Source: Bilabrum cf. latius
Taxonomy: Eukaryota
Reading direction: 5' to 3'
Assembly (NCBI GenBank): GCA_965178125.1
Contig: OZ237763.1
Coordinates: 1-64,000, forward strand
DNA: 64,000 bases
The notes below the pieces were generated by a model that saw only the letters and a list, made by a program, of their open reading frames with translations, was not told where the DNA came from and made no database searches. Shown in pieces: positions 2,990-60,454 of the stretch. A program made the position numbers and the translations under genes. The first letter of the stretch is position 1, and each line of letters starts with the position of its first letter.

Positions 2990-4583
2990 ATGAATATTAT
3001 CCGGAGCATGGCAACGTTCAATGATACTGATTATACCCCTATGAAAATGCCAGCATTGTCTCCGGTGAGTTTTGACTACTGAAGTTTTTGGATTGTGGCA
3101 GATCAGCTCCTCCTGCAACAAGTGCCGAGGCTTGCTGCTTTATCCAATCCCACACGAGCCAATGCACGAATCTTAGTTGCTTTTCTAGCTGATTGCACAG
3201 ACCATGGAGCACGGTCGTATCAAGGAATGGCAAGTTGCTGAAGGGGATGAGCTGTCCCCCGGGATGGAGCTTGCTGAGGTTGAGACGGACAAAGCTAGTA
3301 TTACGTTCGAGTGCCAAGACGACGGCTACCTAGCGAAAATATTTGTTGAAGCAGGTGCCGGTGATGTTGCGGTTGGGGACGTGATTGGGGCGATGGTAGA
3401 GGACGAGGAGGACGTTGCAAAATTGGCTGGACTCACCTTGGATGAAGCTGCGGCGGCTGCTGGCGGCGGTGGCGGCGCCGATGCGCCTGCACCCGCTCCC
3501 ACACCAGCCCCGGCCCCGGCCCCGGCTCCGGCTCCGACGCCCTCTCCAGCCGCAGCATCCGCGGCAGGCTCCTCCCCGGCACCCGCCCCTTCTTCCGCCG
3601 GAGGGCCCGTCCGCGCAACCCCGCTCGCCAGGACGCTCGCACGGGATGCCGGGCTTGATTTGGTGCAGCTTGCAGGGGCAGGTTCTGGCCCTGAGGGCCG
3701 CTTGGTGGCGGACGACGTGCGCGCTGCCATCGAGGGCGGGGCGGCTGCTGTGGTGGGTGACCAGGCCCCGGCCCCGGCCCAGGCACAGGCAGGGTACGGG
3801 CAGCAGGGCCAGGGGGTGGCTCCGCAGGCTGAGGCAGGAGCAGCAGGGGCGGGCGGCTGGTTCCCGACCCGGGGTGCGTTCACGGACATGCCTCACGGTC
3901 CTGGCCGATCTGAGTGGGCCGCTGCTCTGACAGCCAGCAAGCGGGACGTACCTCACTACTACCTGACGGTGGACGTCTCCATGGATGCGGCACTGGCGCT
4001 GAGGGGTAGGCTGAACACCAGGCTGGCCCAGGGCAAGGGGGATGCTCCCGCCCAGGTGTCATCGCACGATCTGGTCGTGAAGGCCTCGGCTCTGGCCATG
4101 CGAGACGTGCCCGAGGCCAACTCAGCCTGGCTGCCCGAGGCGGTCAGGCAGTACCACTACGTGGACGTGGCTTTTGCGGCGCAGGGGCCCAGTGGCAGCA
4201 CGAGCCACCCCGTACTGGTGGACGCAGGCACCAAGGGCCTGGGCGAGCTGGCTGAGGCACGGAGCAGGCTGCAGCAATAGGCGGCGGCGGGTGAGCTGCA
4301 GGGTGACGAGGCCCAGGGGGGCACGTTCACGGTGGTCAACTTGGGTAGGTTCGGAGTGAGGCAGGCCAGCGCCATTGTGCGGCCCCCGCAGTCCTGCGTG
4401 CTTGCGCTTGGGGCGGTGCAGAGGCGGGCTGTTCCGGACGGTCCCAATGGCGGCGTGCGGCCGTCGTACGTGCTGAGCTGCACGCTCTCGTGCGACCACC
4501 GCACCGTGGATGGGGCGGTGGGCGCCGCTTGGCTGCAAGCCTTCAAGGCCTACCTGGAGGACCCGGACACGATGCTGCTGTGA
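2990..4583 (+). CDS. DLAT: Pyruvate dehydrogenase E2 dihydrolipoamide acetyltransferase-family protein (one in-frame TAG)
   Basis: MPALSP|TMEHG across intron 3065-3200; lipoyl motif VETDKA; E3-binding ATPLAR...GSGPEGR; catalytic domain GGTFTVVNLG...TLSCDHRTVDGA. The TAG at 4278-4280 is followed in frame by AAAGELQGDEAQGGTF. Ends TGA at 4583. The start codon is uncertain, and an E3BP/PDHX-like paralog is possible. Confidence 0.88.
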
Positions 4584-9443: not shown

Positions 9444-9638
9444 CTGCCCCCCGACAGTTAGCCAGCTTGCCAAGTTGCAATGCATGTGTTCTTCTTGGCG
9501 GATCCATGCGACGATATTGTGGCAGAGGTATGACGCAGCTGAATTGCAAGAGAAAATTTTCGAAGTCTCATCGCAATTCTTCAGTCCAACCAAAGCTTCG
9601 GACCACTCGTAGCTCGCAAGCACCGGGCCCATGCTCAC

Positions 9639-12146
9639 TCACAGCTCCGGCAGAGTGGCGGGCACCGCGGGCGCCGCTGCCCCCTCGAATCGCGCCATGA
9701 GCGCCGCGGCCTTGGCTGCGATCCCGTCCGGGGTCAGCTTAAAGTGCTCGTACACTGCTGGCCCCGGCCCGGACAGCCCGAACGTGTCCACGCCGTGGTG
9801 CCCGTGCCCGAACCGCTCCCACCCCAAGGAGCACGACGCCTCCACGGTCAGCACCGGGGTCCCCTTAGGGAACACAGAAGCCCTGTACTCCGGATCCTGC
9901 TCCAGGAAGACCTCCTGGCAGGGCAGCGACACGATGGCCACCTTCTTGCCAGCGGCGGCCCCGCCCTCCAGCTGCAGGGCCTTGGCTGCCTCCACGCACA
10001 GACTGACCTCGCTGCCAGAGGCGCACAGGATCACGTCGGGCTGGCCCTCGCCCTCCCCGCCCTGCAGGGTGTATCCGCCCTTCATGGCGGCCTCCACCGA
10101 GGAGCCCTCCAGCTGGGGTAGGCCCTGCCTCGAGAGGGCCACCACGGCGGGGTGCCCGGGGCGAGTGGCGTAGTTGCCGTACGAAGCCGAGACCTCGTTG
10201 CCGTCTGCCGGCCTGTAAACATCCATGTGGGGCATGCCGCGGAGCATGAGCAGCATCTCCACCGGCTGGTGCGTGGGCCCGTCCTCGCCCAGGCCGATCG
10301 AGTCGTGCGTCGCCACGAAGAGCACGCGGAAGTGGGACAGGGCAGACACGCGCACAGCGCCCGCGGCGTACCCAATGAAGTTGAGGAACGTCGCCACGAA
10401 GGGTAGGTGTCCCCCGAAGGCCATGATCCCGTTGGCGATGGCGGTCATGCCGTGCTCCCTCACGCCGAAACGGATATACCTCCCGGCGGGGGTGTCCTTC
10501 TAAAAGTCGCCAGTGATCTTGAGCAGCGTCTTGTTGGACGGAGTCAGGTCGGCAGAACCGCCGAAGAGCTCCGGCAGCTTCTCGGCCAGCGCGTTGAGGG
10601 CCTTGCCGCTGAGGCTGCGTGTGGCTTCCTTCTTGTCCGCGGGTGTGTACCTGGGCAGGCAGTCCACGATGTCGGCGGGCAGCTCCCCCTTGAACCTCCT
10701 CTCGATCTCCGCCCCCTCCTCGGGGAACTTGGCCTTGTACGCCTCGAAGGCAGCGTCCCACTCCTGCCTGGCCTTGACGCCCCTCTCGGCGGCCTCCTTG
10801 TAGTAGGCCAGCACGTCCTCTGCCACCACGAAGGACTCCTTGGGGTCGAACCCGAACTTCTCCTTGGTGGCTGCAAGCACTTCATCGCCCAGGGGCGACC
10901 CGTGCACGCCCGCGGTACCCACCTTGGAGGACCCGAACCCGATGCGGGTGGACACCTTGATGATGGAGGGCCTGGAGGTCTCCTTCTTGGCCTCCTCCAC
11001 GGCCCGCTGGATGGCACCAATGTCCTCGTCACCATCTTCCACCACCTGCACATGCCACCCATAGGCCTCGTAGCGCTTGGCCACGTCCTCGGTGAAGCTC
11101 AGCTCCGTGGACCCGTCGATGGTGATCTTGTTGTCGTCGTACAGCACCACGAGGCTCCCCAGCCCCCAGTGTCCCGCCAGCGAGCTGGCCTCGCTCGAGA
11201 TGCCCTCCTGCAGGCAGCCGTCCCCGCAGATGACAAACACGTTCGAGTCGAAGATCTCGTGACCCTCCTTGTTGTACGTGGCGGCCAGGTTCTTCTGGGC
11301 CAGGGCCATGCCCACCGCGTTGGAGATGCCCTGCCCCAGCGGGCCGGTGCTCACCTCGATGGCCGGGTGCAGCTCGTTCTCGGGGTGGCCGGCGGTGCGG
11401 CTGCCCAGCTGGCGGAAGGCCTTCAGGTCGTCCATGGTCATGTCGGAGTGGCCAGTGACGTGCAACATGGAGTAGAGGAGTGCGCACGAGTGCCCGTTGG
11501 AGAGCACGAACCGGTCCCGGTTGATCCACTTGGGCTGCGAGGGGTCGTAGTTCATCTGGTTGCCCCAGAGCACGTGGGCCATGGGAGCGCAGCCCATGGG
11601 AGCACCTGCAAACACATACAGAATAGAGGTGGGTGGGGCAGCTACTAGTGGGCATTCGACACCGGCACGCAAATACACGAAATCAGCAGACAAAGGCAAC
11701 TGCGCGTCACATGCCAGTCTCGCTTCCAACCTGGCTGGCAGCCCAAATTGGAAGCGGAAACATCGGTAGGGAAGAACGGCTATGCTGAACCATCGGAGCT
11801 GTAACGGTGGAGAGCGCATGCTGGTCGTGTGCAAAAAGGGGCGACGTGTTGCAGTCGTCTGCCGCGAACACTCGGCGACGTCACCACAACTCATCCAAGT
11901 CCGACCTCATTGGTAAGATTATAGATGTAAAAGCACTACAATGGTTAATCAATTCGCGCGCTGCCTCGACAGAGCAAGGCCTATCCCTAGATGGCGCGTC
12001 GATGCTGTGCTTCAGTACATCTCACCTGGGTGTCCGCTGTTTGCCTTCTGTACCATGTCTGCTGATAGCAACCGCACCGTGTTGATGCACTTGAGATCAA
12101 TCCCATCGGCTTTCGCACCCGCGCCACCGCTTGCAGCTCCTGCCAT
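9639..12146 (-). CDS. TKT: Transketolase (1 in-frame TAG)
   Basis: INTVRLLSADMVQKANSGHPG|APMG across intron 12025-11606; NRDRFVLSNGH; TPP-binding motif GDGCLQEG; GDF*KDTPAGRYIRFGVREHGM; THDSIGLGEDGPTHQP; TGA at 9639. Confidence 0.97.
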
Positions 12147-15277: not shown

Positions 15278-16858
15278 TCATGCACGGGGCGCTTTGTACT
15301 GTGCCACATCATCGAACGGCACCGTCACCACTGTCCTATCCTCCTCCATCTGCACAGTCGCGCATTGAGTCCGCTTGTCCCGCTGCAGCAGCACCCCTAG
15401 CTCCCCCCGCTACTCCCCTCGCAGCATCATCACCTGCCTGTTCCCCGCTCCACCGCTGCTTGCCTTGGGCAGCACGGTACACATCTACTCCTCCCGCAGC
15501 TGCACCGCAGTGCCCGCGCTCCCTTCCCCGCCCAGCTCCACGCGAACAGTGGCCATCCCCGGCGCAGGCAGGTCTTCCACCCACCCCTTGCAGTGCAGTG
15601 CATCCCTGCCTCGCACAACCACTCCTCGGGCCATGACCCGCACCCTTATTCCAGGCCAGGCCCAGCCACCCTTCCTCTTGCTCTCACTCCTGGGAGCGGT
15701 GGACGGGCCCGTCCTCCGCGCCTTCTTGGAATCGGGCTGGGGCACCTGTACAGCTGTGGGCTCGCTGGACGCCTGCCCTCCTGCCTCCGGCCTGCGTCGC
15801 TTGCTACCGGCCCTTGCATCCTTCCCGTGGGAGCTGGCAGCACTCCCGGCCGACTTGGCTCTGCCTGACTGCGCGTGCCCCTGTCCCTCATTTGCATGCA
15901 CCGCAGCCCCCTGCACCCTTAGGCTGGCACCAAGCCCGGGGTGCAGCACCACACGCTTTTCGCCCCGGTGGCGCCAGCGCATGCCAGCTGGCACAGATCG
16001 GACCTCATCGTCCTTACCATCGCCCCCCCCACCGGCCTCCTCCTGCTCCTGCGCAGCCACCTGCATGGCCGCCGCAGCCACAGCCTCGGACTTGCTGCCG
16101 GCTGAGCCCTTCGCTTTCGGACCCCCACTGGATGCGACGCTGCGGAATCTGGATTTCGCGCCATCGGTGGCCAATTTTATGAGGTCTTGCAGCTGCTTGG
16201 AGGAGGGCTCCTCGCCACGGACCTGCTTTTCGGACGCACCCATTCCGCGAAGCATTGCATCCCCGAAATCTTCAACGGCAATACCAGTCTTGCCTCCAAC
16301 CGCTTCACTTTCTGCAGCAAGTACCCGAGACATTAACGATGATCCAACCATTCTCTTCACCTCGTCGCTTCGATGCTGTGCAAGTGACTTTGCTGGGTTG
16401 TCGGCCTCTGGCAATGCGGCCAGCTCTTCTGCCAGAGTGGGGTTGAGGCTTCCAGAGGAAGTTGACACGCGAGCTTGTCGGGCGCGGAGAAGCAAAGGCC
16501 CTTCTTGCTTCGTTTTAGCGCGAGATCCGTCCTTGGCTCCGAGCATGTGGCCACTTTTTCGGAATAGTCTACTTCTCAGGTCGCTAGCTGTCCCTCGAGC
16601 AGAGACAGAGGCTTCTATTGCTGGTTTGATCGCACCAGGCAGGGTAGGCGGTATAATCATTGGAATTGTAAGCTTCTCTGGCTTGGGTCCCTCTTGTGTT
16701 TTGGGAGCATGCCCAATGGACCTCGAAGCAAATGCCGCTAGGCCAGCATCTTCCCTCGCATCTGTGCTTACAAACTATAGAGCAGACGTGGCCGATTCCA
16801 ATGATTTAGGTACTGATATTGCCGGTCGTTTTGAGGCCTTGAAACGTACAGCGGACAT
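15278..16858 (-). CDS. GPKOW: G-patch and KOW domain splicing factor (Spp2/MOS2/GPKOW family; 3 in-frame TAG)
   Basis: IAVEDFGDAMLRGMG (Spp2/MOS2 G-patch) and WAWPGIRVRV. After the TAG at 15485 comes the C-terminal KOW MCTVLPK...VMMLRGE*RGELGVLLQRDK...VPFDDVAQY; TGA at 15278. Confidence 0.8.
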
Positions 16859-17125: not shown

Positions 17126-20100
17126 ATGGCAGGCCGTGAGATAAATTCGAACCATGCTTTCATAATTGTTAATGGATTTAATCTCGACTGCCTTTGATTG
17201 CGGTTCTATTCAAGTTTTATTTGCGCAGCGCCGCCGCCACCAGGAGGTGGACCACGGCCAAGAGTGCCATCTCTTGCACTCAAGCCAGGGCATTCTGCCC
17301 CTGCTGGTGTCCCAGCTAGACCCGGAAGGGCAATGATGACAATGAAGGAGTTGCGAGCAGCAATGATGAAGGAGGGAGTTGATGTGCCGGCCAAGTCGCC
17401 GAGGAGCACGGGGTCCCGCTCACCGAGAGGCGCAAGCTCACGGTCACCGCCAGGGTCAAGGCCGCCACCACCGCCTGGTGCAGGGAGACCGCCTCGATAG
17501 GGTAGTGCCGGCCCGCCGAGGCCCGGCCGCCGCTCCTCGGGCTCAGCTGGTGGCCCCAAGCGGCTTCCACCTGGAGCCCCACCGCCACCAGGCCAGTCGC
17601 AGCAGAGAGCACCAGGACCTCCGGGCCCTCCACAGCCCGTCAGAGTATCTGGGAGCAGACCGGGCCCACCTGGAAGCAGACCAGGTCCACCTGGAAGCAG
17701 GGTACCACCCCCGGGTGCCCCCACCCGGGGGTCAGGGGAACCCCCCCGGGGGTCAGGTGCACCCCCTAGGCTCATACCCCCGGGCCCTCCCCGCGGCCCC
17801 CCCAGCCCTGGCGCCTCGCGCAGCTCTCCGCCACCCCCCGCCGGTTCAGGACGCCCAGGAAACAGGGCAGCCTCCCCGTCACTCCCCCCACCTAGCGCTC
17901 CAGGGTCGCCACGGCCCCCGCCGCCTGCTCCAGCTGCCGTCAGTGCCGCCAACCGACCAGCGGCACCCGGCGCACCTGGCAGCGAAGACGGGTCTGCTGC
18001 CGGATAGGTTGGCTCTGGCAGCCCGCGAGGTGCTTCGGATCCGCCACCAGGCCTGAAAGCCCCGCCGGGACGTCCCATGGTCGATAGTACGGGTACTGGG
18101 AAGCTACCGCCAGGCGCGCCTCCCCCGCCACCGGGCCAGGACGGACAGTCTCCAGGATTGTCCCCAAGATCGTCGCCGAAGCAGGCAGCCGAAGCCATGA
18201 AGCGGGCATCGCCATCGCCACCGCCGTCGCCGAAGCAGGCAGCCGAAGCCATGAAGCGGGCATCGCCACCGCCGTCGCCGAAGTAGGCAGCCGAAGCCAT
18301 GAAGCGGGCATCGCCACCGCCGTCGCCGAAGTAGGCAGCCGAAGCTAGCCGTGGCTCAGACTCTGGTGCTCCACGGCCCCAGGGAACTGGAACGAAGACG
18401 CCGCCGTCGCCCCATCCGATCCCACCGGGAGGCGAGCCTCGAGCTGCAGTCACATCAAGTGTCCCCCCCAGCCCTGGCTCTCGCCCTGGCCCATTCGGAC
18501 GTGTAGAAGGTACCGAGGCAGACTCTGGTGCTCCACGACCCCAGGGAACTGGAACGAAGACGCCGCCGTCGCCCCATCCGATCCCACCGGCAGGCGAGCC
18601 TCGAGCTGCAGTCACATCAAGTGTCCCCCCCAGCCCTGGCTCTCGCCCTGGCCCATTCGGACGTGTAGAAGGTACCGAGGCAGACTCTGGTGCTCCACGG
18701 CCCCAGGGAACTGGAACGAAGACGCCGCCGTCGCCCCATCCGATCCCACCGGGAGGCGAGCCTCGAGCTGCAGTCACATCAAGTGTCCCCCCCAGCCCTG
18801 GCTCTCGCCCTGGCCCATTCGGACGTGTAGAAGGTACCGAGGCAGACTCTGGTGCTCCACGACCCCAGGGAACTGGAACGAAGACGCCGCCGTCGCCCCA
18901 TCCGATCCCACCGGCAGGCGAGCCTCGAGCTGCAGTCACATCAAGTGTCCCCCCCAGCCCTGGCGCTCGTCCTGGCCCTGGCGCTCGTCCTGGCCCTGGC
19001 GCTCGTCCTGGTCCTGGCGCTCATCCTGGCCCTGGCGCTCGTCCTGGCCCTGGCGCTCGTCCTGGCCCTGGCGCTCGTCCTGGCCCTGGCGCTCGTCCTG
19101 GTCCTGGCGCTCGTCCTGGCCCTGGCGCTCGTCCTGGTCCTGGCGCTCGTCCTGGTCCTGGCGCTCGTCCTGGCCCTGGCGCTCGTCCTGGCCCTGGCGC
19201 TCGTCCTGGCCCTGGCGCTAGCCCATTCGGAGGTGGTGGAGGCGGCGGACTGTTTGATCCTCGCGAGCTGCAGGCGGCACTGAAGAAAACGAAGAAGAAA
19301 GGGAAGAAGAAGAAGGGCAAGAAGAAGGCCGACAATGGGAATTCAAAGACTCCTGTATCGAAGGTGGATGAGGAGCCCGCTGCGTCGAAGGTGGATGAGT
19401 AGCCCGCTGCGTCGAAGGTGGATGAGGAGCCCGCTGCGTCGAATGTGGATGAGGAGCCCGCTGCGTCGAAGGTGGATGAGGAGCCCGCTGCGTCGAAGGC
19501 GGATGAGGAGCCCGCTGCGTCGAAGGCGGATGTGGAGCCCGCTGCGTCGAATGTGGATGAGGAGCCCGCTGCGTCGAAGGTGGATGAGGAGCCCGCTGCG
19601 TCGAAGGCGGATGAGGAGCCCGCTGCGTCGAATGTGGATGAGGAGCCCGCTGCGTCGAATGTGGATGAGGAGCCCGCTGCGTCGAAGGTGGATGAGGAGC
19701 CCGCTGCGTCGAAGGTGGATGAGGAGCCCGCTGCGTCGAAGGCGGATGAGGAGCCTGCTGCGTCGAAGGCGGATGAGGAGCCCGCTGCGTCGAAGGCGGA
19801 TGAGGAGCCTGCTGCGTCGAAGGCGGATGAGGAGCCTGCTGCGTCGAAGGTGGATGAGGAGCCCGCTGCGTCGAAGGTGGATGAGGAGCCCGCTGCGTCG
19901 AATGTGGATGAGGAGCCCGCTGCGTCGAAGGTGGATGAGGAGCCCGCTGCGTCGAAGGCGGATGAGGAGCCCGCTGCGTCGAAGGCGGATGAGGAGCCCG
20001 CTGCGTCGAAGGCGGATGAGGAGCCCGCTGCGTCGAAGGCGGATGAGGAGCCTGCTGCGTCGAAGGTGGATGAGGAGCCCGCTGCGTCGAAGGTGGATGA

Positions 20101-23100
20101 GGAGCCCGCTGCGTCGAAGGTGGATGAGGAGCCCGCTGCGTCGAAGGTGGATGAGGAGCCCGCTGCGTCGAATGTGGATGAGGAGCCCGCTGCGTCGAAG
20201 GTGGATGAGGAGCCCGCTGCGTCGAAGGCGGATGAGGAGCCTGCTGCGTCGAAGGCGGATGAGGAGCCCGCTGCGTCGAATGTGGATGAGGAGCCCGCTG
20301 CGTCGAAGGTGGATGAGGAGCCTGCTGCGTCGAAGGTGGATGAGGAGCCCGCTGCGTCGAAGGTGGATGAGGAGCCCGCTGCGTCGAAGGTGGATGAGGA
20401 GCCTGCTGCGTCGAATGTGGATGAGGAGCCTGCTGCGTCGAAGGTGGATGAGGAGCCTGCTGCGTCGAATGTGGATGAGGAGCCCGCTGCGTCGAAGGTG
20501 GATGAGGAGCCCGCTGCGTCGAAGGTGGATGAGGAGCCCGCTGCGTCGAAGGTGGATGAGGAGCCCGCTGCGTCGAAGGTGGATGAGGAGCCCGCTGCGT
20601 CGAAGGTGGATGAGGAGCCCGCTGCGTCGAAGGTGGATGAGGAGCCCGCTGCGTCGAAGGTGGATGAGGAGCCCGCTGCGTCGAATGTGGATGAGGAGCC
20701 CGCTGCGTCGAATGTGGATGAGGAGCCCGCTGCGTCGAAGGCGGATGAGGAGCCCGCTGCGTCGAAGGCGGATGAGGAGCCCGCTGCGTCGAAGGCGGAT
20801 GAGGAGCCCGCTGCGTCGAAGGTGCATTAGCGGGATACCGTTGCAACCCAAGCTGACTATCCCGCTGGTTCACCACGTAAGGATGAGGGCACGACTAACA
20901 GCGCACATGACAAGCAATTCAAGGCTGAAGAAGAGGCGAGGCAACGCATGGCGGCCCAGGTTGCAGAGAGGGCCATGGGCTCATTGCCAGCCGGCCGAGG
21001 CCGTAGTGACCCCGCTGCACCTGCCAAAGGTTAGAGCGACGGCAGTGACCAGCGTCACTAGTCGGCAGCTGTCTCGGTGGGCGGCTCGCCCGCCAGCTCC
21101 GGACACACTGCCTCTCAGACCGCGGGGCTCGTGCTGGTGGACGCATTAGCCCGCGGAGATACGAGCGGGCTAGACAAGCGCACCAAGCACCTGCTGCAGA
21201 TCATCGCAAAAGACTCGTAGCTCATGCGCAAGCTAGCTCGCGCCGTCAAGCAGCGCAAGCAGGAGATCAAGGCAGAGGAAGACGGCATTCCAGCTCCCAT
21301 CCAGGCGCTCATGCGTGGGTCGGGGTCTGGCAGCTCTCAGTCGGGACGGTTCACTGCACCGGCCGTAGGAGTCTCGGTGGACCAGCAGTTGAGGTCCAGC
21401 CCCGGTGCGTCGCGCAGCTTCCCAGCACCCGTGGACTTGTCCAAGGTGGTGATGCCTCCTGACCTGCAGGCCAAGATGGCTCGGCTGCTGGAGGCCCAGC
21501 AGCAGTGCGAGGCGGGAGACCCTCCGCTGAGACTGCCCGTGCTGACGGCAGACGACCTTGTTCGCCTGACTGCAGACCAGCTGCAGCTGTACAAGGCCGC
21601 GCTCACCAGGGTAGTCGCCGCCAAGAAAGTCGCCGTGGCCCGCAGGAAGGAGCAGGAGGCCCGCTCCCCTAAGCAAGTGAGCCCCAAGGTGGACACTGGG
21701 TACGCGGCCAGGAAGTCCCCGTCCCATGCGTCTCCACGAGCATCACCGTCGGCTGGCAGCGGGAATGGCAAAAGGCTGTCGCCTCGCAGTGGAGGCAATG
21801 CCCACTTCTCGAATGCCTCGCGATCGCCCCGAGGGTCCGGTGGCGGGCGGGCGAGATCCAGAAGGGCCAGAGGGTCCGTGGGAGCTGGATCTGCTCGCAG
21901 CAGCAGGCGCGGCGAGCGTACGGTGGACGCAGGACAGTATGCTACGGCAGATGCTCTGTCCGCCCGGGCCAGCGCACGGGCCAAGTCTAGGACCAGGTCG
22001 AGTCCAAGAGGCAAATCACTGGGGCGGTCACGGGGGAAATCGTCGGGCCGCTCACGGGGCCCAGCCTCCGGCAGCAGCGGCAGCTCTGGCAGCAAGAGCA
22101 TCAGTAAAATGGCAAGGCAGGGCGTGGACGCCGAGACGGGCGCCCTCGTGCTCAGGCAGCCCAACAAAGTCACGGCGGACTCTGTGACGATGCGTTCTGG
22201 CCGCGGAGACCCGACCTAGATCGCCTTCGAGACGGGTCTCAGAGGCAGGGCGGGAGGACTGGTGCCCTCACGGGAAGCTGGCTCAGCACGACCCACAAGC
22301 CTCCGTAGGCGGGCAAGCTCCAAGGGCGCCAAGTCCACAGGCAGTCCCAGGGGCACGCCTGTGACTCGATCAGGACGCAGCCGCAGCGGCAGGCAAGGCG
22401 CTCGCTCCAGGTCCGGGGGCGCCCGATCTGCCCTCCAAGCGGGCGCTGCAGACCGTCTGTCCCGTCCTAGGACAGGCTCACCGCGCACTGCCTCTTCAGC
22501 GGGAGCCCAGGCCTCGATCCGTCAGGCAGCCCGACTAGAGGAGGAGGCCAGGGCCCGAGAGAGGACCAGTCGGGTGCGAGCCAAGAGCAAGGGGCGGGGG
22601 CGGGGGCAAAGCAATGGCGGGCAAGGTCCACTTGAGTCACCCCTGGTGCAGTCTCAGTCCCAGGCCCGCGAGCTGGCCCTCATCCGCATGAGGAACACCC
22701 CCATAGTGGACGGACTAGGCCCCGACGGGCAGCCCATCCCCGACCTGCAGGCCAACACCGCCCCCGCGCTGCCAGACGAAGTCCCCCAGGTGGGTGCACT
22801 GGCCAGAGAGCCATTGACTGGCCCCTCCATGACCTATGCGGCGCCTGCCTTGGACGGCGTGGAGGGTCCGCCTAGGCCGCAGTCCCTCGGGAACACGGAC
22901 GCGCCCGCGACTGCCAGCGTGGCTGCCTCGGCTGCCAGCCTGACGCTCTCGAGCCGCAGTGGCACCCGCTCGCTGGGCCGCAGGCACACTCCCAACTCGG
23001 ATCGGTTGCTGGCCGAGCTGGCAGCCATGGACGCGCAGGTGGAGGCAGAGACAGCTGCGGCGCAGTCCGAGTCCATCGACTCCGGGTCCATCGTGATCAC

Positions 23101-26100
23101 CATACCCACTGCGGCACAGCTGGACGAGATGGCTTTGGAGGAGGGCGCGCTTGGAGAGGCACCAGACAAGGTCAAGACCAAGCCAGCAGAGGGACCTGAT
23201 CAGGTATCTGACGGACCTGGTGATGCCAGTCCTGTCGAAGTGACCGATGGTACTGCTAAGCAGAACGACACGGCGGCAAAGGGTGGCACAGCAGCAAAGG
23301 AGGACACTGCTGGAAAGGATGACATAGCAACGAAGGAGAGTAGCGAAGGTCCCACTGGCAACGCCTAGACACCCCCTAGTGAAGGCAAGGGTAAATCATC
23401 AACTGCCGGTGGGGAGCAAGAGCAAGAACAGCACAGCGGCGCACCGGACCCCCGGCTGCCGGGCGCAGCCAGCAAGCCAGCACTGCGCCCGGCACCCCAA
23501 GGCACCAACACCCTGAAGGACCAGGACAAGTCGCCATCTCCGTTGTAGGAGGGAGGAACAGCTGAACCCAAAGAGAGCGACGAGACTGAGCGACCGGACG
23601 CCTCCAGTGCCGATGGCCCGTCCCGGCCTGGCCCTGGCGCTCGTCCTGGCCCTGGCGCTCGTCCTGGCCCTGGCGCTCGTCCTGGTCCTGGCGCTCGTCC
23701 TGGCCCTGGCGCTCGTCCTGGCCCTGGCGCTCGTCCTGGCCCTGGCGCTCGTCCTGGCCCTGGCGCTCGTCCTGGCCCTGGCGCTCGTCCTGGCCCTGGC
23801 TCTCGTCCTGGCCCTGGCGCTCGTCCTGGCCCTGGCTCTCGTCCTGGCCCTGGCGCTCATCCTGGCCCTGGCGCTCGTCCTGGTCCTGGCGCTCGTCCTG
23901 GCCCTGGCGCTCGTCCTGGCCCTGGCGCTCGTCCTGGCCCTGGCGCTCGTCCTGGCCCTGGCGCTCGTCCTGGCCCTGGCGCTCATCCTGGCCCTGGCGC
24001 TCGTCCTGGCCCTGGCTCTCGTCCAGGCCCATTCGGACGTGTTGGAGGTACCGACGCAGGCTCTGATGCTCCACGGCCCCAGGGAACTGGAACAAAGACG
24101 CCGCCGTCGCCCCATCCGATCCCACCGGCAGGCGAGCCTCGAGCTGCAGTCACATCAAGTGTCCCCCCCAGCCCTGGCGCTCGTCCTGGCCCTGGCGCTC
24201 GTCCTGGCCCTGGCGCTCGTCCTGGCCCTGGCGCTCGTCCTGGCCCTGGCGCTCGTCCTGGCCCTGGCGCTCGTCCTGGCCCTGGCGCTCGTCCTGGCCC
24301 TGGCGCTCGTCCTGGCCCTGGCGCTCGTCCTGGCCCTGGCGCTCGTCCTGGCCCTGGCGCTCGTCCTGGCCCTGGCGCTCGTCCTGGCCCTGGCGCTCGT
24401 CCTGGCCCTGGCGCTCGTCCTGGCCCTGGCGCTCGTCCTGGCCCTGGCGCTCGTCCTGGCCCTGGCGCTCGTCCTGGCCCTGGCGCTCGTCCTGGCCCTG
24501 GCGCTCGTCCTGGCCCTGGCGCTCGTCCTGGCCCTGGCGCTCGCCCTGGCCCTGGCGCTCGTCCTGGCCCTGGCGCTCGTCCTGGCCCTGGCGCTCATCC
24601 TGGCCCTGGCGCTCGTCCTGGCCCTGGCGCTAGTCCATTCGGAGGTGGTGGCGGCGGCGGACTGTTTGATCCTCGCGAGCTGCAGGCGGCACTGAAGAAA
24701 ACGAAGAAGAAAGGGAAGAAGAAGAAGGGCAAGAAGAAGGCCGACAATGGGAATTCAAAGACTGGTGCTAACGAAAAGCAACAGGAAGGCTAGCCGTCCT
24801 AGTCCTAGTCTGTGCCAGTTCCAGATACAGCATTATCTGCGCTCGAGCCCCAGCCGGCTGTTTCCGAGAGTTCGGCAATCTTCGTGCAAGCGCAGCATCC
24901 GGACAACAAGGATGTTAATACCAGCACCAAACAGGGACATGGTGGCGCGCTCGTCCTGGAGGCGAAGAAAGAAGCTGAAGGCACTACTCCCGAAGAGAGC
25001 GCCAACGTGGTGCCTCTGCTGTCCCCACCTAGAGCGGGGCGCGCTGCTCCCATCCTTCTTGGTGCCGTGGTTGGCGGTGGCGGGGACGATGACAGTCAGG
25101 GCCAAGAGCCGGCTCAAGCCTCATCTCGAGCGCCAGGGTCCAATGCCGACGGCGGGCAAGAGGACGGTAACGACAGCGACTCCAGCTCAGCCGATGAGAT
25201 GGATGGTACTGGCACTGGTGGAAGGGCAGGCGGGCAGCCACACAGGGATAGCGGTAGCGACTCCTCCAGCTTGCAATCGGGAGGAAGCAGGAACAGGAGC
25301 AGGGGTTCGCGATCCAGGTCTAGGTCTGGGTCCAGGTCTGGGTCCTCGTACACGGGCTCGTATGACAGCCGCTCGAGCAGTCAGTCAAGGTCCCGATCTG
25401 GCTCTGGATCCTACAGCGACTCGGGCAGCAGCGACGGGTCGTTCGACTCGCGCGAGGACAGCCAAGATACGGGCGAGTCCATGCCAAAGCTGAACTCGGT
25501 CCAGATATTCGTTACACCGCACGGACCGCTCCCGTTCATGCGCGCCCCACAAGGCTGGATCCCGCTGCCTCCACCGACCCAGGCTGCCGCCGCGACAGCC
25601 GGTACCCCGCATACCACAGTTCCCCCCGTGCCGGGCAGTATTGCGATGTCACAGCCCATTGCAGGGGCAGAGATCGATCTGGGAGGATCTGTCGCATCTG
25701 TTGCTTATGTACCGGGCCAGAGCGCACACCCTGCACCCGGGACCCTGGGTAGCACAGTCCCCCCGGGTGCCAGGTGGCTGCAGCCCAGACAGGCCCCTCC
25801 AGTGCTAGCCGCATCTGCTGGCAGTCTGGGCTCCAGGGAAGTTCCCATGCTCAGCCCAGGTGCCCGCACCCTTCCCACCTCTGGAGGGCGAGCAGAAGCA
25901 GCTGCCTCGAATGGGACTGCTGGTAAGGCTGATAAGAAAGCGGCCCATCTGTCCAAGACGGGCGCCAGGTCGCTTCAGCGAGTGGGCGCTCCAGGTGGGA
26001 ACGGCAAGGCAGCAGCAGGCAGCTCCAGCAGCACCGCTTCTCCTGGTCGCTCTCCCCTAAAGCCGCTGCTGCCAGTGGGCGCCCCGGGTGACGAGGATGA

Positions 26101-29100
26101 GCGCGAGGCTGAGGACGTACTGGGAGCCTCTCTCAGGGGGGTCAGGGAGCCTGCGGGGGCGAAGGCACACCGTGCTGCTAGGGACAGTGCGGCTGCCGGT
26201 GCGACCTCTGGCAAGGGAAAAACATCTGGGACCAGTGGTGCGCGCGGGGTCAGGGGCAAAGACAAAGACAAGAGCGGCAAGCGGTCCAGCCGCAGGCAAG
26301 CCGCAGCTGGCTAGAACCCTGCCGACGATCCCAAATACATGCCACGCAAGGGCAAGCACGCCCCGCTTGAGGGACTCAAGGCCTTCATGTACGTGCCCAA
26401 CGCGCGTTGGAAGAGGCCCAAGGCCGGGGAACAAGAGTCCCCTGACGCGCCCAGGTACTGGGTGGGCCGCGTGACAGAGATCACGAGGCATCGCAAGTGC
26501 GTGCTGCACTGGTACAGGGAGACGAGCCCCGGTTCCGGCCTTTACAAGTCCACCAACCACCACTTTGCCGAGAAGATTGGCGCCCTACGGCAGTTCCGGA
26601 CCGCGGTGCGAGACAAGGCGGCCAAGGGCTGGCGGCTGTACCCGATCGTGCAGGTGGATGGGGACGACAAAGACAGAGAGAAGGAGGAGGAGGACAGGGC
26701 GAAGAGGGAGGCTGCGGGTATGCCCGTGGATGGCGAGGAGGACGAGGAGGATGAAGAGGAGCTCGCTATGGAGCGGAGGAAGAAGGAGGCTGGTAAGGGG
26801 CCCGAGGTGGAGGAGGAGGACCCCTCGCTGTTCGTGGGGCAGTTCATCTTTCTGAGAAACGCGAGGTTCGACTCGGCTAACGAGACCACTCGCAAGCCGA
26901 GGTACTGGGTTGGGCGGGTGGTTAATCAGGCCCCGCCCGCAAGCCCAATGGGCATCCCTGGCATGCCAGCCATGCCGGGAATGCCTCCCATGCCCGGAAT
27001 GCCGCCGATGCCCGGAATGCCTGGCATGATGGGCATGCCCCGACCGGGTGCAGGCGGTGCCCAGCAGCTGGCAGCCTCTGTCTCTCACAAGGTGGTGGAC
27101 GCCCGCGGCCGAGTCAAGCTGTAGTGGTTTATGGAGACCGCCATCGGGAGCGGAATATTCGTCGCCACAGACAAGACCTTCCTGGAGGCCAAGGACCTTG
27201 TAGTGCCGGTCCCGGGGGGTCTCGTGCATGACCGCAGCATCAACGCGTGGAGGAGGAAGGCCGGGCCGCGGGGGGCACCCCCCGAGCCCATCGTGTACCC
27301 CGGGGACGAGGCCCTGATCGCAGCCATCGTGCGCGAGAGGGATGCAGGGCCGGGCAAGGTGACCGGGGAGGGGCCCAGCTTGGGCGACGGGGCTGGAGGA
27401 GCTGCTGGATCTAGTGACCGGGCATCTCCCGATCCACCTGTGGAGATCAACGAGGAGAGGTCGGTCGCGCTGGAACCGGGGTATTTCTGCTTCTTGCCAA
27501 ACAAGAACTACAGGCAAGGCGCAAAAGAGACTCCGGACACGCCTCGGCACTGGGTGGCTCGCCTCACGCGCGTGCTGCCCAAGGACCAGGAAGGAGACGT
27601 GTGCGGCCGCTTCGAGTGGTGGCGGGAAGACAGTGCGGGAAGTAGGCTGTACCGCCGCACCGAGAGGGTTTTCAAGCAGAAGGTGGCCCAGATGTCCGTG
27701 ATCATGCCCGAGCACATGAGACCAGCGCCCGAGGCAGGCAGCGGGGCCCGCCTCATGTCTGGCCCCTTCAACACAGGGGCTCGGTTCGCCATGCCAGACG
27801 AGCACAGGACAGGCGGACCGCCCTCTTTGCCCATGGGTACTAGCAGCAGCACGGTGGCGGGAGATGGGGGCAGTGGTGCGGTCAGAGGGCAGGCGAAGGG
27901 TTCGGGGCCTGCTGCAGGGACATCCTCCCCGGCCCTGTCCAGCGTGCCCCCGACCCCCGAGGCCTTGGCTCAGCAGCACGGACAGACGAAGAAAGAGCCA
28001 ACAGGCAAACCCCCGCTGGCCAATGTAGCTTCTTCAGGTTTAGTGGAGGACAAGGAGGAAGAGGCGGCGGCATTCAAGGCCAACGGGAAGTCAAAGACCA
28101 AAGCAAAGGGCAAGACCAAGGGCAAAGCGAAAGGCAAGGGCAAGACCAAAGGCAAGACTAAGGCCAGCTCCAACAGCTCCTCTCAAGCTGCCTCCAAGGC
28201 CACGTCAGTAGCACATTCCGTGGCGGCAAGTGCCCGCAGTAAGGGGACGTCATCCTCCAGGAGAGCCAGCGATGCAAGCCTTCGAGCAGCAGACACAGCC
28301 CCAGGCACACCTGCGTCTGCTAGACCAACCCCAGGCCATCGACCGCAGCCGAGACCCCGTCCTAGGCCCGGTGGAGCCCGTCCCCGACCAGGAGCAGGAG
28401 CAGGAGCATCGACGCCACCAGCCCCTGCAGCATCGGATGCCCCAGCGCCCGGCCCTCGTCCGCAGCCGAGACCCCGTCCTAGGCCCGGTGGAGCCCGTCC
28501 CCGACCAGGAGCAGGAGCAGGAGCAGGAGCATCGACGCCACCAGCCCCTGCAGCATCGGATGCCCCAGCACCCGGCCCTCGTCCGCAGCCGAGACCCCGT
28601 CCTAGGCCCGGTGGAGCCCGTCCCCGACCAGGAGCAGGAGCAGGAGCAGGAGCATCGACGCCACCAGCCCCTGCAGCATCGGATGCCCCAGCGCCCGGCC
28701 CTCGTCTGCAACCGAGGCCCCGTCCTAGGCCCGGTGGAGCCCGTCCCCGACCAGGAGCAGGAGCAGGAGCAGGAGCATCGACGCCACCAGCCCCTGCAGC
28801 ATCGGATGCCCCAGCGCCCGGCCCTCGTCCGCAGCCGAGACCCCGTCCTAGGCCCGGTGGAGCCCGTCCCCGACCAGGAGCAGGAGCAGGAGCAGGAGCA
28901 TCGACGCCACCAGCCCCTGCAGCATCGGATGCCCCAGCACCCGGCCCTCGTCCGTAGCCGAGGCCCCGTCCTAGGCCCGGTGGAGCCCGTCCCCGACCAG
29001 GAGCAGGAGCAGGAGCAGGAGCATCGACGCCACCAGCCCCTGCAGCATCGGATGCCCCAGCGCCCGGCCCTCGTCCGTAGCCGAGGCCCCGTCCTAGGCC

Positions 29101-30490
29101 CGGTGGAGCCCGTCCCCGACCAGGAGCAGGAGCAGGAGCAGGAGCATCGACGCCACCAGCCCCTGCAGCATCGGATGCCCCAGCGCCCGGCCCTCGTCCG
29201 TAGCCGAGGCCCCGTCCTTGGCCCGGTGGAGCCCGTCCCCGACCAGGAGCAGGAGCAGGAGCAGGAGCATCGACGCCACCAGCCCCTGCAGCATCGGATG
29301 CCCCAGCACCCGGCCCTCGTCTGCAACCGAGGCCCCGTCCTAGGCCCGGTGGAGCCCGTCCCCGACCAGGAGCAGGAGCAGGAGCAGGAGCATCGACGCC
29401 ACCAGCCCCTGCAGCATCGGATGCCCCAGCGCCCGGCCCTCGTCCGCAGCCGAGGCCCCGTCCTAGGCCCGGTGGAGCCCGTCCCCGACCAGGAGCAGGA
29501 GCAGGAGCATCGACGCCACCAGCCCCTGCAGCATCGGATGCCCCAGCACCCGGCCCTCGTCCGTAGCCGAGACCCCGTCCTAGGCCCGGTGGAGCCCGTC
29601 CCCGACCAGGAGCAGGAGCAGGAGCAGGAGCATCGACGCCACCAGCCCCTGCAGCATCGGATGCCCCAGCGCCCGGCCCTCGTCCGTAGCCGAGGCCCCG
29701 TCCTTGGCCCGGTGGAGCCCGTCCCCGACCAGGAGCAGGAGCAGGAGCAGGAGCATCGACGCCACCAGCCCCTGCAGCATCGGATGCCCCAGCACCCGGC
29801 CCTCGTCTGCAACCGAGGCCCCGTCCTAGGCCCGGTGGAGCCCGTCCCCGACCAGGAGCAGGAGCAGGAGCATCGACGCCACCAGCCCCTGCAGCATCGG
29901 ATGCCCCAGCACCCGGCCCTCGTCTGCAACCGAGGCCCCGTCCTAGGCCCGGTGGAGCCCGTCCCCGACCAGGAGCAGGAGCAGGAGCAGGAGCATCGAC
30001 GCCACCAGCCCCTGCAGCATCGGATGCCCCAGCGCCCGGCCCTCGTCCGCAGCCGAGGCCCCGTCCTAGGCCCGGTGGAGCCCGTCCCCGACCAGGAGCA
30101 GGGTCGAGCACTCCGCCCCCAGCGCCAGGCATGGGGGCAGCTGGGTCGAGCACTCCGCCCCCAGCGCCAGGCATGGGGGCAGCTGGGTCGAGCACTCCGC
30201 CCCCAGCGCCAGGCATGGGGGCAGCTGGGTCGAGCACTCCGCCCCCAGCGCCAGGCATGGGGGCAGGGTCTCTACAGGTGGGCCAGCCGAGGCCACGGCC
30301 CAGGCCGAGACCACGGGCGCGGCCGGGCAACTTCGGGCCCACACAGCCCCGGACTCAGGATGCCGCGCCAGCGCCACCCCCACCACCGCCAGGAGCTGGT
30401 GCCCCGACAGCATCGGTGGGCGGTGCCAGGCCCAGACCCAGGCCCCGGCCTCGACCGGGGCCGAGGCCGCGCCGCAATGCGGTGCACTGA
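17126..30490 (+). CDS. Giant (~4420 aa) Pro/Gly/Ala-rich repeat protein with three BAH/Tudor-like modules (about 20 in-frame TAG)
   Basis: ATG at 17126, intron 17136-17228. ORF pieces at 17198, 18077, 19418, 21224, 22262, 24812, 26339, 27131 and 30131 are all in one frame, and every stop read between them is TAG. First TGA at 30488-30490. Confidence 0.8.
18358..18960 (+). repeat. 162-bp coding tandem repeat, about 3.7 copies
   Basis: Units begin at 18358, 18520, 18682 and 18844 (DSGAPRPQGTGTKTPPSPHPIPP...). Confidence 0.9.
18957..19218 (+). repeat. 18-bp coding tandem repeat (PGARPG)n
   Basis: Unit cctggccctggcgctcgt; the same unit recurs at about 23625-24030 and 24171-24630. Confidence 0.92.
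19357..20826 (+). repeat. 27-bp coding tandem repeat (DEEPAASK/N-V/A), about 54 copies
   Basis: Unit gatgaggagcccgctgcgtcgaaggtg with minor variants; encodes an acidic 9-aa repeat. Confidence 0.97.
23625..24630 (+). repeat. Two 18-bp (PGARPG)n arrays separated by one copy of the 162-bp unit
   Basis: Same 18-bp unit as 18957-19218; 24030-24170 resembles the 162-bp repeat. Confidence 0.92.
28340..30100 (+). repeat. 117/123-bp coding tandem repeat, 15 copies (PRPQPRPRPRPGGARPRPGAGAGA...STPPAPAASDAPAPG)
   Basis: Near-identical units; the Gln position is CAG, CAA or TAG depending on the copy. Confidence 0.95.
30100..30268 (+). repeat. 45-bp coding tandem repeat, about 4 copies (GSSTPPPAPGMGAA)
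   Basis: Unit gggtcgagcactccgcccccagcgccaggcatgggggcagct repeated. Confidence 0.85.
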
Positions 30491-30630: not shown

Positions 30631-33600
30631 TCACATGATGCCCCCAAGGATGTCGCCCCAATTAGGCGACGCCCCCGCACCGGTGCCCTTCGGGCCTGAA
30701 CCAGGGCTACTAGTCATCGTGCGGCCCTTAGCACCTGTAAGTGTGCTACTGGCTGCATACGTATTAGTAGCAATTTGCTTCGGACCTCGCTATGCTCGTG
30801 GTGCGCTGCTTCTGCTACCAGCATCCGGCGCGGAAGTGCTGGCAAGCGCCTCAGTGGACTCATGTCCCTTCCCTGCCTCGCCCAGTTTGCCCTCCTTCTC
30901 TTGTACCTTCCGCGCTTCTCGCTTGGCACGATCAGCATCCATGGCCATGGCCATGGCCCGCGTGGCCGGCACTTCCCTCGCGTACATTGCTCTGGCCTCA
31001 GGACAGCTCTGCAGCGCTGCCTCGGACCAGCCCAGCAGACGGACGCCCTCCCCGCTCACTGCCCTGCTGAGCGCCGTGTACCCCATGCCCGGCCCGAATG
31101 CACGCGACAAGTCCACCTGCACCTTAGGCAGCGTCATGCCCTGGGCCTTGTGCACGGATAGCGCCCAGCCGAGCAGCAGCGGAACCTGCCTCCTCACGGC
31201 TGTGTTCCCCAGCGCGTCCTTGACCTCGAATGCCTCTGCACGCAGCTTGACCCGGATGGTCCCCGGGGGCCCGTCCTTGGCCCTGGTGGCTCCATAGCCT
31301 TCGATGGAGGACAGGGAGGGGGAGGTGGAGAGGACAATGGGCGATGCAGACGACAGCGAGGATGAGGATGAGGATGAGGATGAGGATGAGGATGAGGATG
31401 AGGAGGATCTCTGCAGGGAGGCGGGCCCCTCCAGCGCGCTGCCGCTGCCCACCGGCCAGAAATCGACCTCCACCGCGGTTGGGTTGCCCCCTTTAGTGGC
31501 ATCTACGAAGCGAGCCACCACCCCCGGCGTGCCATTCACCACCCCCCTAGCCCCCATCTCGCGGACCAGGTTCTTGCACAAGATCACGCGGGCTCCAGGC
31601 TTCAGACTCACAGTGGCTGGTGCCACGCACCCACTCACCAGCTGTGACAGAAGCCTCGCCCCCGCCCCTCCTGCCTACATGGCCACTATCTCCCTCGCCG
31701 CCTGTGCCCTGGCCCTGGCCCCCTGGTCACCCCCCTCCTTGGCCTCCGCCTGCAGCTGCTCCCACTCAGCCACCCCGTCCACACGCACCCTGCGCCCCGC
31801 CCCTGGCCCGGCCCTGATCTCCACGTCATGGGAGGCCACGAAGGACACTGCCGTCCCCTCCAGCGCCCTGAGCCTGCCCTCATTCTCCCGCGCCACGTCG
31901 ATCTTGCGGGGCATCAGGCGCACCGCCTCCTGGAAGTCCCTCGATGCCCGCCCCGCAGCTGCCCTCACGAACCGCCGCACCTCCTCAGAGGCTCGGCCCT
32001 CCCTCACGTCCCCCAGCACTCGCAGGAAACCGCCATCCTTCTGGCGGTACACCGCGTCCAGCACCACGGTGCATGGCACTGCAGTGCTCCAGAGCGGACT
32101 CCCGAAACAGTACTTGGACACTTCACCCAGCGAGCCCCCTTGGGCAGCTGACTCCCGCCAGGCTCCATCCCGCACAGGAGGAAGCTGGTGGAAGTCGCCC
32201 ACCAGCACCAGCTGCACGCCGGAGAGCCCGCCCCGCCGGCCATCAAGCACACTGTGCGCCCCCGCTGCAGCCCCGCTGTTCCCTGCAAGTCTCGCGGACA
32301 AGGCGCCATGGGTCTCTTTGAGCCTAGCTATCTGACGAGCTGCAACCCCGGAGGACGGCTGGAGGGGGGCGGAGAGCGAAGATGATGACGGCGAGGGCGA
32401 TGGTATGCCAGCACCGGCAGATCCATGGTGCTGCCCCGCCCCCGCCCCCGCCCCCGCCCTCGCCTCTCTCCTGGTGGCCTCTCCGCCCCTGCACGCCTGC
32501 GCCGCCGCCACCACAGCCGCGAATAGATCCGGCCCCAGCATGGAGGCCTCATCCACCACCAGCACGTCCGCGTTCTGCCAGGCCTCCCGCGCCAGAGCCG
32601 ATTTCCTAGCCCTCCCCGCTAGCTCCTGGGGGGAGCCATTCGCCGCGCCAATCCCTGCGAAGCTGTGCAGCGTCTGCCCGCCCACGAGACAGGCAGCCGA
32701 TGCAGTGGTGGCCGTCACCGCCACAGTCAGCCCCAGGTCCTCCCGCAGCTCCCGCACCGCCAGCCGCAGCACGTGGCTCTTCCCCGTGCCCGCCGCCCCA
32801 CACACCAGCACGCTCTTCCGCCTCACGCAGATGAGGTCCAGGGCGAGCCGCTGCTCGGGCGAGAGCCCCTCTCTCCTCTTGTCCCTGCGCCGGGCCAGCT
32901 CGGCCCCCCTCGCCCTCCTCCTCGCCGCCGCCATGGCCGCCCTCTCGCTGGCAGGGGACATGGGCACCGCCTCCCGCGGGATGGCCCCCTGTCTGACGGC
33001 CAGCAGCGCGCCCGCGTGGGTGGGCACAAGGACGAGGGCCGGGGCATGGGGACGGCGGGCTGCAGCGGTTCCTGGCTTGCTCCCTGCACTTGCGACCGCC
33101 CTCGAAGCTGCGCCAGCCGCAGAGCGTGACCCGGAGCTGCCCGCCTTGGTCTTGCTTGGGCCGCGGCCAGAGGCACCGGCAGACCACTAGGCGCTAGGGG
33201 ACATACGGTGCCGTTTGGCGGAAGGAGGAAGTGACCGAACCCATCCATTGCTTGCACTGCTTACCTGTGGCCCATTTGATGCCGCTTTAGACCCTGGCTT
33301 GCGGAGCAACAGAGCGGCGGCGGAACGCTTCGCGCCTATCCGTCCCGGCTGGCTCCCAGCCATCTAAGAGCCAGATGAACGAGGGGCTCCTGGTGTTGAT
33401 GCATTGCTACAACGCGCTTCCACCGCAGCGTTTCGACACCACTGCGACCAATCGGGATCTCGTTTCTTGTTTGAAACGAGCCCGTTACGCTGCATCTTGG
33501 ACACTGTATCCAGTATCACATACCCCGGGATAGGAGCTAGTGATCCATGATATTTACTTTTGACGGCTTTGGGAACCTGGATCGGGACAAGATAGTCCGT

Positions 33601-33705
33601 TTTCCCACGCAAGAATGACTGCAAAGCTTGAATGCACGGCGGGGATTTTGCGAAGTGCAGCGCCGATACAGTTCCAATGATGACATCTCGCACCTCATTT
33701 GACAT
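30631..33705 (-). CDS. PIF1: PIF1-family 5'-3' DNA helicase, about 1024 aa (4 in-frame TAG)
   Basis: LSPEQ, GAAGTGKS, TLHSFAGIG, VVDEASM, VGDFHQLPPV, YRQKD, LKPGARVILCKNL, VNGTPG, RQVPLLLGWALSVHKAQGMTL, YTALSRA. Fragments join through TAGs at 33364, 33187, 31675 and 30790; TGA at 30631. Confidence 0.92.
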
Positions 33706-60000: not shown

Positions 60001-60454
60001 GGGTACCGGCGGTGCACCGACATCCGACGGTAGCTCAAGCGGTGCTGCCGCGCCTAGCTCCATCGAGCTGCTGACTACATCACCAGCTCTGGTGGCGGTC
60101 GTGGCGGGGTCTGTGGTGGTGGCACTTGCAGCCATGATTGTGGCGGCTTTGCTTGTGGTGCGCACGCCGGGCAGAACGACGTCCCCTGCGAATCCGGCGG
60201 CTGTGCGCGCCTCGGAGGCTGGTGTGCTGGAGGAGGGCAGCAGCCTGCGGAGTATCGCTCGCCCCCTTCGTGGTGGCAATGCTGAGATTGGTGCCACAGA
60301 TGAGGAGAAAGAGAAGGAATAGACCCCAGTGGGCATCGCTGAAGAGTCTTCCGACGGTGATGACATGGTTCTGGCGTCGATCGACAGCGATAGCGAGTCA
60401 GGGTCTGACGAGGCGCGGGTGCTGCCGTCTGTGGGCATGGCTGGCATGACATGA
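48005..60454 (+). CDS. Giant (~4110 aa) type I membrane surface protein with cadherin-like, RCC1-like, Cys-rich, Ser/Thr-rich, FG-GAP and unrecognised repeats (about 25 in-frame TAG)
   Basis: Signal peptide MAAKSALLAWAALLVAPADA; intron 48214-48330. All later fragments (48755, 50141, 51029, 51902, 52871, 56363, 57203, 58829) are in one frame joined by TAG. Cadherin motifs DVNEPP, VPEN, ASDPDAGD, LDFE; FG-GAP motifs GDMDGDGVDDLAV, GDLDGDGIQDIGVGAP; TM at about 60085-60160; TGA at 60452-60454. Confidence 0.88.
53391..53860 (+). repeat. 36-bp coding tandem repeat (PTASVSGSPSTS), about 13 copies, mucin-like stalk
   Basis: Unit cccactgcgagcgtcagcggcagcccgtccacatcg repeated. Confidence 0.93.

Follow-up and report, generated by a model that had tools for sequence, protein, structure and literature searches.

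An in-frame TAG in the transketolase gene of Bilabrum cf. latius and the very probable reading of UAG as glutamine by its nucleus

The transketolase gene

The window, that is, the whole stretch of 64,000 nucleotides that was analysed (GCA_965178125.1, OZ237763.1, positions 1 to 64,000), is the start of contig C29, and its positions 1-900 are a CCCTAA telomere array. The assembly (G000), with 48.6 Mb in 111 contigs and this telomere, is that of a eukaryote.

The transketolase gene lies on the minus strand. Exon 1 (12026-12146, with the ATG at 12146) and exon 2 (9639-11605, ending with TGA at 9639-9641) are separated by an intron of 420 nt with GT..AG ends (11606-12025), which were checked; the joint is present in contigs of the runs X5, X6, and X12. 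The coding sequence has 695 codons plus the TGA, and codon 409 is a TAG, at 10500-10502, in the minus-strand reading GAC TTT TAG AAG GAC ACC CCC. It is the only TAG of the gene; the other 18 Gln codons are all CAG. The original prediction had placed this TAG at the conserved Gln of the DFQ motif, and the alignment with the best 120 homologues bears this out: 113 of them have Q at this position, five have S, one has D, and one has a gap.

The 286 codons 3' of the TAG, which include the THDSIGLGEDGPTHQP motif, agree with the approximately 290 residues that termination was said to delete, and the description of both halves as intact also stood. X12 is from a relative about 95% alike; of its 27 listed differences on the 3' side of the TAG (40 of 95 rows being listed), 26 are synonymous, which argues for purifying selection on the second half. 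The relative likely has the same TAG, as positions 10486 and 10503 are among the differences listed, and 10500-10502 are not. Spliced contigs of X5 and X6 agree with the window at every position of 9600-11602, as does a contig of X8 with depth 2 over 10282-10844. X5 and X6 are runs of two other studies; their RNA status was guessed by the tool, yet the contigs skip the intron. Because the spliced contigs are identical to the window, the T of the TAG is neither a sequencing error nor edited. When the genome was searched with the C-terminal half (two candidates scored, one match), a single transketolase came up and no second, TAG-free one. It should be mentioned that the identical gene occurs in X5-X7, which are filed under three different organism labels; a flagellate that grows in cultures of other organisms might give this picture.

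The single in-frame TAG, and the protein P0033, 98% identical and predicted to end at the TAG residue, could suggest a peculiarity of this gene: readthrough confined to it, a nonsense allele, a pseudogene, or RNA editing of the codon from U to C. This is scarcely credible, since the gene is single copy, the spliced contigs keep the T, the differences listed 3' of the TAG are nearly all synonymous, and the dynein genes alone hold 308 TAGs. With UAG read as Gln, transketolase would be a normal protein of 695 residues with Gln409.

Other genes of the window

When TAG is taken as a sense codon, frames of 4,385 and 3,859 residues open in the window, each with 22 TAGs; no such long frames open in the window with TAA as sense. 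The longer one (17333-30490, plus strand) encodes a repetitive protein in which TAG alternates with CAG and CAA at the same repeat slot (CAG five times, TAG five, CAA four; at another slot CAG and TAG twice each). A repeat slot with one TAG among 52 GAG is read as a substitution. The protein is built from several blocks of tandem repeats and has a few copies of a Trp-containing domain without assignment; the frame has no Pfam match. The other one (48875-60454, plus strand) encodes a surface protein in which cadherin, FG-GAP, and ephrin-receptor-like matches occur together with a Ser/Pro/Thr repeat; near its C-terminus are about eight copies of a domain without assignment.

Several shorter genes also carry TAG. 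A G-patch/KOW protein (15278-16858, minus strand) has two of its three TAGs within the GPKOW_C match, which is below the curated cut-off. A dihydrolipoamide acyltransferase frame (3162-4583, plus strand) has one TAG within the match to the catalytic domain, and a PIF1-like helicase (30631-33705, minus strand) has four. In a Tubby-family gene (45496-47286, plus strand), a TAA directly after the Tub domain is the stop.

TAG codons across the genome

The meaning of TAG was examined in the dynein heavy chains, for which 17 of 19 PF03028 matches were fetched, the two weakest being left out. With TAG as sense, 16 of the 17 genes form single frames of 4,300-5,500 codons and the remaining one is in two pieces; TAA as sense extends no dynein frame in the 17 stretches. 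With the standard code, five of 16 stretches are without any 800-codon ORF. In the codon test against 150 dynein representatives, 193 of the 308 TAGs had at least 20 aligned residues, and a conserved column was assigned its majority residue. TAG faces Q at 30 of 48 conserved columns, E at 10, and other residues at eight; as controls, CAG faces Q at 367 of 557 and CAA at 40 of 66. At 90% conservation, TAG faces Q at 10 of 11. The summed log-likelihood is +138 for Q, and the next residue is E at -78. As a control of the method, the test assigns every sense codon (61 of 61) its standard meaning; the other codons are standard.

The E columns raise the alternative that UAG is ambiguous or stands for another residue (Glu or Tyr), for example through TyrRS charging a Tyr-like tRNA(CUA). 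The E share of conserved columns is 21% for TAG, compared with 8% for CAG and 17% for CAA. Nevertheless, the whole column profile of TAG (Q 0.20, E 0.12) equals, in effect, those of CAA (0.20, 0.135) and CAG (0.225, 0.116), and TAG occurs at none of 800 Tyr columns and at none of 762 Trp columns of the dyneins. This alternative, to which features of the tRNA described below also relate, is highly improbable.

In other genes, RPB2 has a TAG in a motif where the paralogue RPC2 of the same genome has Gln. The two alignable TAGs of Prp8 are at a P column (117 of 120 residues counted; 117 P, 1 V) and an H column (117 of 119), neither being Q; both are one base from Gln codons, yet they give Q no support. 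It should be mentioned that the Prp8 frame (L059, G000:C24) has an insertion of about 150 residues without a stop, in which one of its three TAGs lies; either a genuine insertion or an intron that looks unspliced is possible.

Among the Gln codons, TAG is a minor third one, with 157 of 1,980 (about 8%) in 71 filtered ORFs from 444 kb. Its use in 18 dynein frames is higher at low GC3 (Spearman -0.75), as expected of a non-preferred synonymous codon. Adjacency to Gln was uninformative (TAG 0.051, CAA 0.052, TTG 0.041). As a separate observation, with TAG as sense a single frame on the minus strand of G000:C1:1036105-1099998 (L190-L196) exceeds 21,298 codons and runs beyond the fetched stretch; it ends with TAA and consists of low-complexity Ser/Gly/Val repeats.

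A second, different 18S gene on the 17.9-kb contig C95 could point to a sequencing or assembly artefact, or to a foreign contig in a mixed assembly. TAG-bearing frames, however, lie on at least 15 large contigs, one of them adjoining the tRNA(CUA) gene, TAA never behaves in this way, and two other studies gave the identical spliced contigs, so that an artefact can be given almost no weight.

The nucleus very probably reads UAG as Gln and uses UAA and UGA as stops (NCBI table 15). The original prediction had implied that the TAG encodes Gln and is implausible as a stop, and the homologue column, the spliced contigs, and the dynein codon test bear out both points. It had treated one site; the site is real, and the evidence extends to a genome-wide reassignment, with in-frame TAG in 40 of 71 sampled ORFs.

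Stop codons

The ORFs were sampled from 444 kb of four contigs, where 71 of 575 candidates passed the codon-usage filter. They end with TGA (63 of 71) or TAA (8 of 71) by construction; the real tests of termination are the dynein ends and the GC3 after TAG. In 12 of the 18 dynein frames the alignment stops no more than two codons short of the terminator, and none of these 12 homology-defined ends has a TAG after the alignment or as terminator. TAA terminates the eRF1 gene, the Tubby-family gene, and three dynein frames. In three RNA polymerase second subunits and one cullin, a near-terminal TAG is read through into conserved sequence. Furthermore, GC3 after near-terminal TAGs is 0.667, versus 0.496 in 3' UTRs (70 ORFs, one telomeric frame dropped); to judge from this composition, the tails 3' of these TAGs look coding.

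These results bear on a dual, position-dependent meaning of UAG like that in Condylostoma or Blastocrithidia, where it would be Gln within genes and a stop close to the end of the mRNA. The TAG share of Gln codons climbs toward ORF ends, being four of 20 in the last five codons versus 71 of 916 at 100-300 codons (113 ORFs). One ORF ends with TAG-TGA, with a tail without homology, and eRF1 retains the residues described below. The enrichment of TAG in the last 40 codons is nevertheless mild and not significant (odds ratio 1.8, p = 0.065), and together with the dynein ends, the read-through polymerase and cullin genes, and the coding-like tails, this makes a dual meaning unlikely. The weak 3' excess (approximately 113 ORFs) gives a faint hint of a minor stop role for UAG beside its reading as Gln.

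The tRNA with a CUA anticodon

One nuclear tRNA gene with a CUA anticodon was found, at G000:C23:907607-907679(-). It scored 69.8 bits, the second best of 48, in an Rfam search in which 63 of 780 candidates were scored. A T run follows the gene, and the adjoining ORF carries eight TAGs. An anticodon pattern search (nine matches) gave no further nuclear CUA tRNA and no UUA tRNA. Pyrrolysine, the default label of ARAGORN for CUA, was set aside, the TAG columns being Gln.

The closest tRNA within the genome is tRNA-Tyr, not tRNA-Gln. Six of seven acceptor pairs and four of five anticodon-stem pairs are common to tRNA(CUA) and tRNA-Tyr(GUA), compared with three acceptor and three anticodon-stem pairs for tRNA-Gln(CUG). 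The comparison covered 24 other nuclear tRNA types, with His and Leu tRNAs left out. Among 269 isotype pairs taken as a control, one has six common acceptor pairs and none has more than eight of 12 in both stems, versus 10 for CUA and Tyr. Origin from tRNA-Trp was rejected, with only two of seven acceptor pairs in common. Like tRNA-Tyr, tRNA(CUA) has C1-G72 and a body of 73 nt; at the acceptor end it differs from tRNA-Tyr in two features, G2-C71 and G73.

The D arm, in turn, is nearest to that of Gln(UUG) tRNA (15 of 19). In viral contigs, 23 tRNAs fit a pattern of the D arm and anticodon stem with the anticodon left free, and all 23 are Gln(UUG); the best of them has 55 identities to tRNA(CUA), versus 50 for the organism's tRNA-Tyr. 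All 22 complete viral matches have G1-C72 and a body of 72 nt. A pattern of the acceptor stem matched 80 loci in the viral contigs, with no tRNA among them.

C1-G72, A73, G34, and U35 form the eukaryotic Tyr identity set, with A73 as a Tyr determinant, and G2-C71 and G73 belong to the bacterial Gln set, according to the available part of PMC9976931. tRNA(CUA) has G73, G2-C71, G10, U35, and A37 of the bacterial Gln set; that part of PMC9976931 contains no eukaryotic Gln set. C1-G72, a eukaryotic Tyr element, and the six shared acceptor pairs are what would favor charging by TyrRS. Yet of the Tyr set only C1-G72 and U35 are present, with G73 and C34 in place of A73 and G34.

These features suggest that tRNA(CUA) is charged with Gln, and an ordinary GlnRS might recognize it via U35, G73, and the Gln-type D and anticodon arms. 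The GlnRS aligns normally to human GlnRS, and no code-linked change was found in it. The tRNA would pair with UAG and not with UAA, where a C:A mismatch would arise. As to ancestry, a Tyr/Gln mosaic or an origin from tRNA-Tyr appears about as likely as an origin from tRNA-Gln with chance resemblance to tRNA-Tyr.

In the E. coli tyrosine suppressor su+III, some mutations at positions 1, 2, 72, and 73 switch recognition from TyrRS to GlnRS (PMC6182185). These mutants are CUA tRNAs with a Tyr-like acceptor differing at 2 and 73, as here. They are laboratory bacterial mutants with the bacterial Tyr pair G1-C72, and the parallel to tRNA(CUA) is an analogy.

Two other observations were made on the nuclear tRNAs. 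Several tRNA-Met-like genes (L040, L023, L048-L050) have six of seven acceptor pairs of tRNA-Pro(UGG), and three have U37; a second tRNA recruitment or a repeat family is possible. Furthermore, tRNA-Ile genes (L009, L045) have the anticodon GAU; eukaryotic tRNA-Ile usually has AAU.

eRF1

A single eRF1 gene is present (C35, four exons, 438 residues, ending with TAA), the other PF03463 match being Pelota. It contains two in-frame TAGs, and therefore its own synthesis needs the altered code. They correspond to human positions 44 and 69. At 44, 32 of 37 sequences have Q; at 69, 31 of 37 have L and five have Q.

The protein keeps GTS, T32, E55, NIKS, S70, and YxCxxxF. It differs at S60V (S in 37 of 37), I35V (36 of 36), and N30D (N in 32 of 35), and further at G29A, N129S, and K130H (human numbering). 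The reference set was 38 distinct metagenome eRF1s with no standard-code close relative among them; the metagenome scan found no close relative, the best match being 72%. The changes could be lineage divergence in a fast-evolving organism. In a possible mechanism, tRNA(CUA) would outcompete an eRF1 with weakened recognition of UAG, for which S60V, L69Q, and N30D/G29A are candidate changes.

Comparison with known codes

Table 15 is known for the nucleus of the fornicate Iotanema spirale (PMC5304391, PMC9161772) and of the phyllopharyngean ciliates Hartmannula sinica and Trochilia petrani (PMC11687900); as far as the available text of these source papers goes, the decoding tRNA was identified in none of the three. 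Iotanema, of an unrelated lineage, likewise has UAG as Gln and UAA as stop. Its eRF1 has T32G in GTS, whereas GTS is intact in Bilabrum, and for its tRNA(CUA) there is only a prediction, that of a mutated tRNA-Gln(CUG), whereas here the gene is present and has only three of seven acceptor pairs in common with the organism's tRNA-Gln(CUG). In the two ciliates, as here, only UAG is Gln, and 58-70% of UAGs are at conserved Gln positions, compared with 62.5% here by a different rule. UAA is their main stop, whereas TGA is the main one (63 of 71) in this GC-rich genome, and a suppressor tRNA is undetected in their assemblies (PMC11687900).

In the rhizarian exLh and in TARA ciliate MAGs UAG is Leu, and in Scotinosphaera it is Ser; UAG is thus uncoupled from UAA as here, with another amino acid (cited in PMC11687900). 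The eRF1 of exLh has L69A (same source), whereas position 69 here is Gln via TAG. This Gln is not diagnostic, because five of 37 other eRF1s also have it. With NCBI table 6 (UAR as Gln in Tetrahymena, ulvophytes, and hexamitins), the reading of UAG as Gln through tRNA-Gln(CUA) is in common; here, UAA is stop and a UUA tRNA was not found by the pattern search.

All features examined assign the nuclear code of Bilabrum to table 15, short of fully excluding UAG as a stop. Bilabrum is a new, independent origin of this rare known code, with a candidate tRNA. No nuclear code change in a stramenopile was found in the literature, including the available parts of PMC11412368, PMC12153298, PMC10553269, and PMC6657734, the search lying mostly outside subscription papers; that an earlier report exists is conceivable but rather doubtful. 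Only tentatively, the case can be put as follows: this would be the first altered nuclear code of a stramenopile, with a tRNA(CUA) that is not a one-base-changed tRNA-Gln(CUG) but either a mosaic of Tyr and Gln tRNAs or what was once an amber suppressor for tyrosine, passed to GlnRS via changes at 2-71 and 73, and with an eRF1 that lost recognition of UAG but kept GTS.

Only a few lineages are known in which the nuclear code treats UAG differently from UAA. The present genome, assembled nearly to chromosome scale, yields the code, a single candidate tRNA, the GlnRS, and the eRF1 together, and therefore the loss of one UAR stop with the other kept becomes directly testable. If the interpretation is true, code changes would be on record for one more supergroup, here with a GC-rich genome. 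With the standard code, gene calls cut short over half of the longer genes (40 of 71 in the sample) and thereby hide the lineage in protein databases, P0033 being one such truncated entry.

Placement of the organism and its organelle

In a FastTree analysis of 38 Prp8 sequences, which included no named alveolate, rhizarian, or bigyran, the organism groups with the oomycetes and Tribonema (support 1.0) but branches outside both, on a long branch. The transketolase tree agrees weakly. Searches with cox1, Prp8, and transketolase turned up no close relative with a name. The organism is very likely a stramenopile, and probably a bicosoecid-like bigyran. Its main 18S is short (1,700 nt). The nearest Prp8 neighbor, P0262, was deposited at full length, which hints weakly that its source has no altered code.

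As mentioned above, contig C95 carries a second, different 18S-5.8S-28S unit (L055, G000:C95:6099-7900). This unit presumably resembles that of a dinoflagellate, and the culture may be mixed.

The mitochondrial contig (G000:C111; L052-L054, L225) has 38.4 kb and reads UGA as Trp (table 4), with a tRNA-Trp(UCA); its long frames use 181 TGA and 30 TGG for Trp. The bicosoecid Cafileria is alike in its mitochondrial UGA and tRNA-Trp(UCA) (PMC6723347). ARAGORN gave only 10 tRNAs on this contig, rps3- and rps4-like frames have 808 and 1,063 residues, and one ORF of 535 residues is without assignment. Two of its 40 long frames end with TAG, which would be relevant if the cytosolic tRNA(CUA) were imported.
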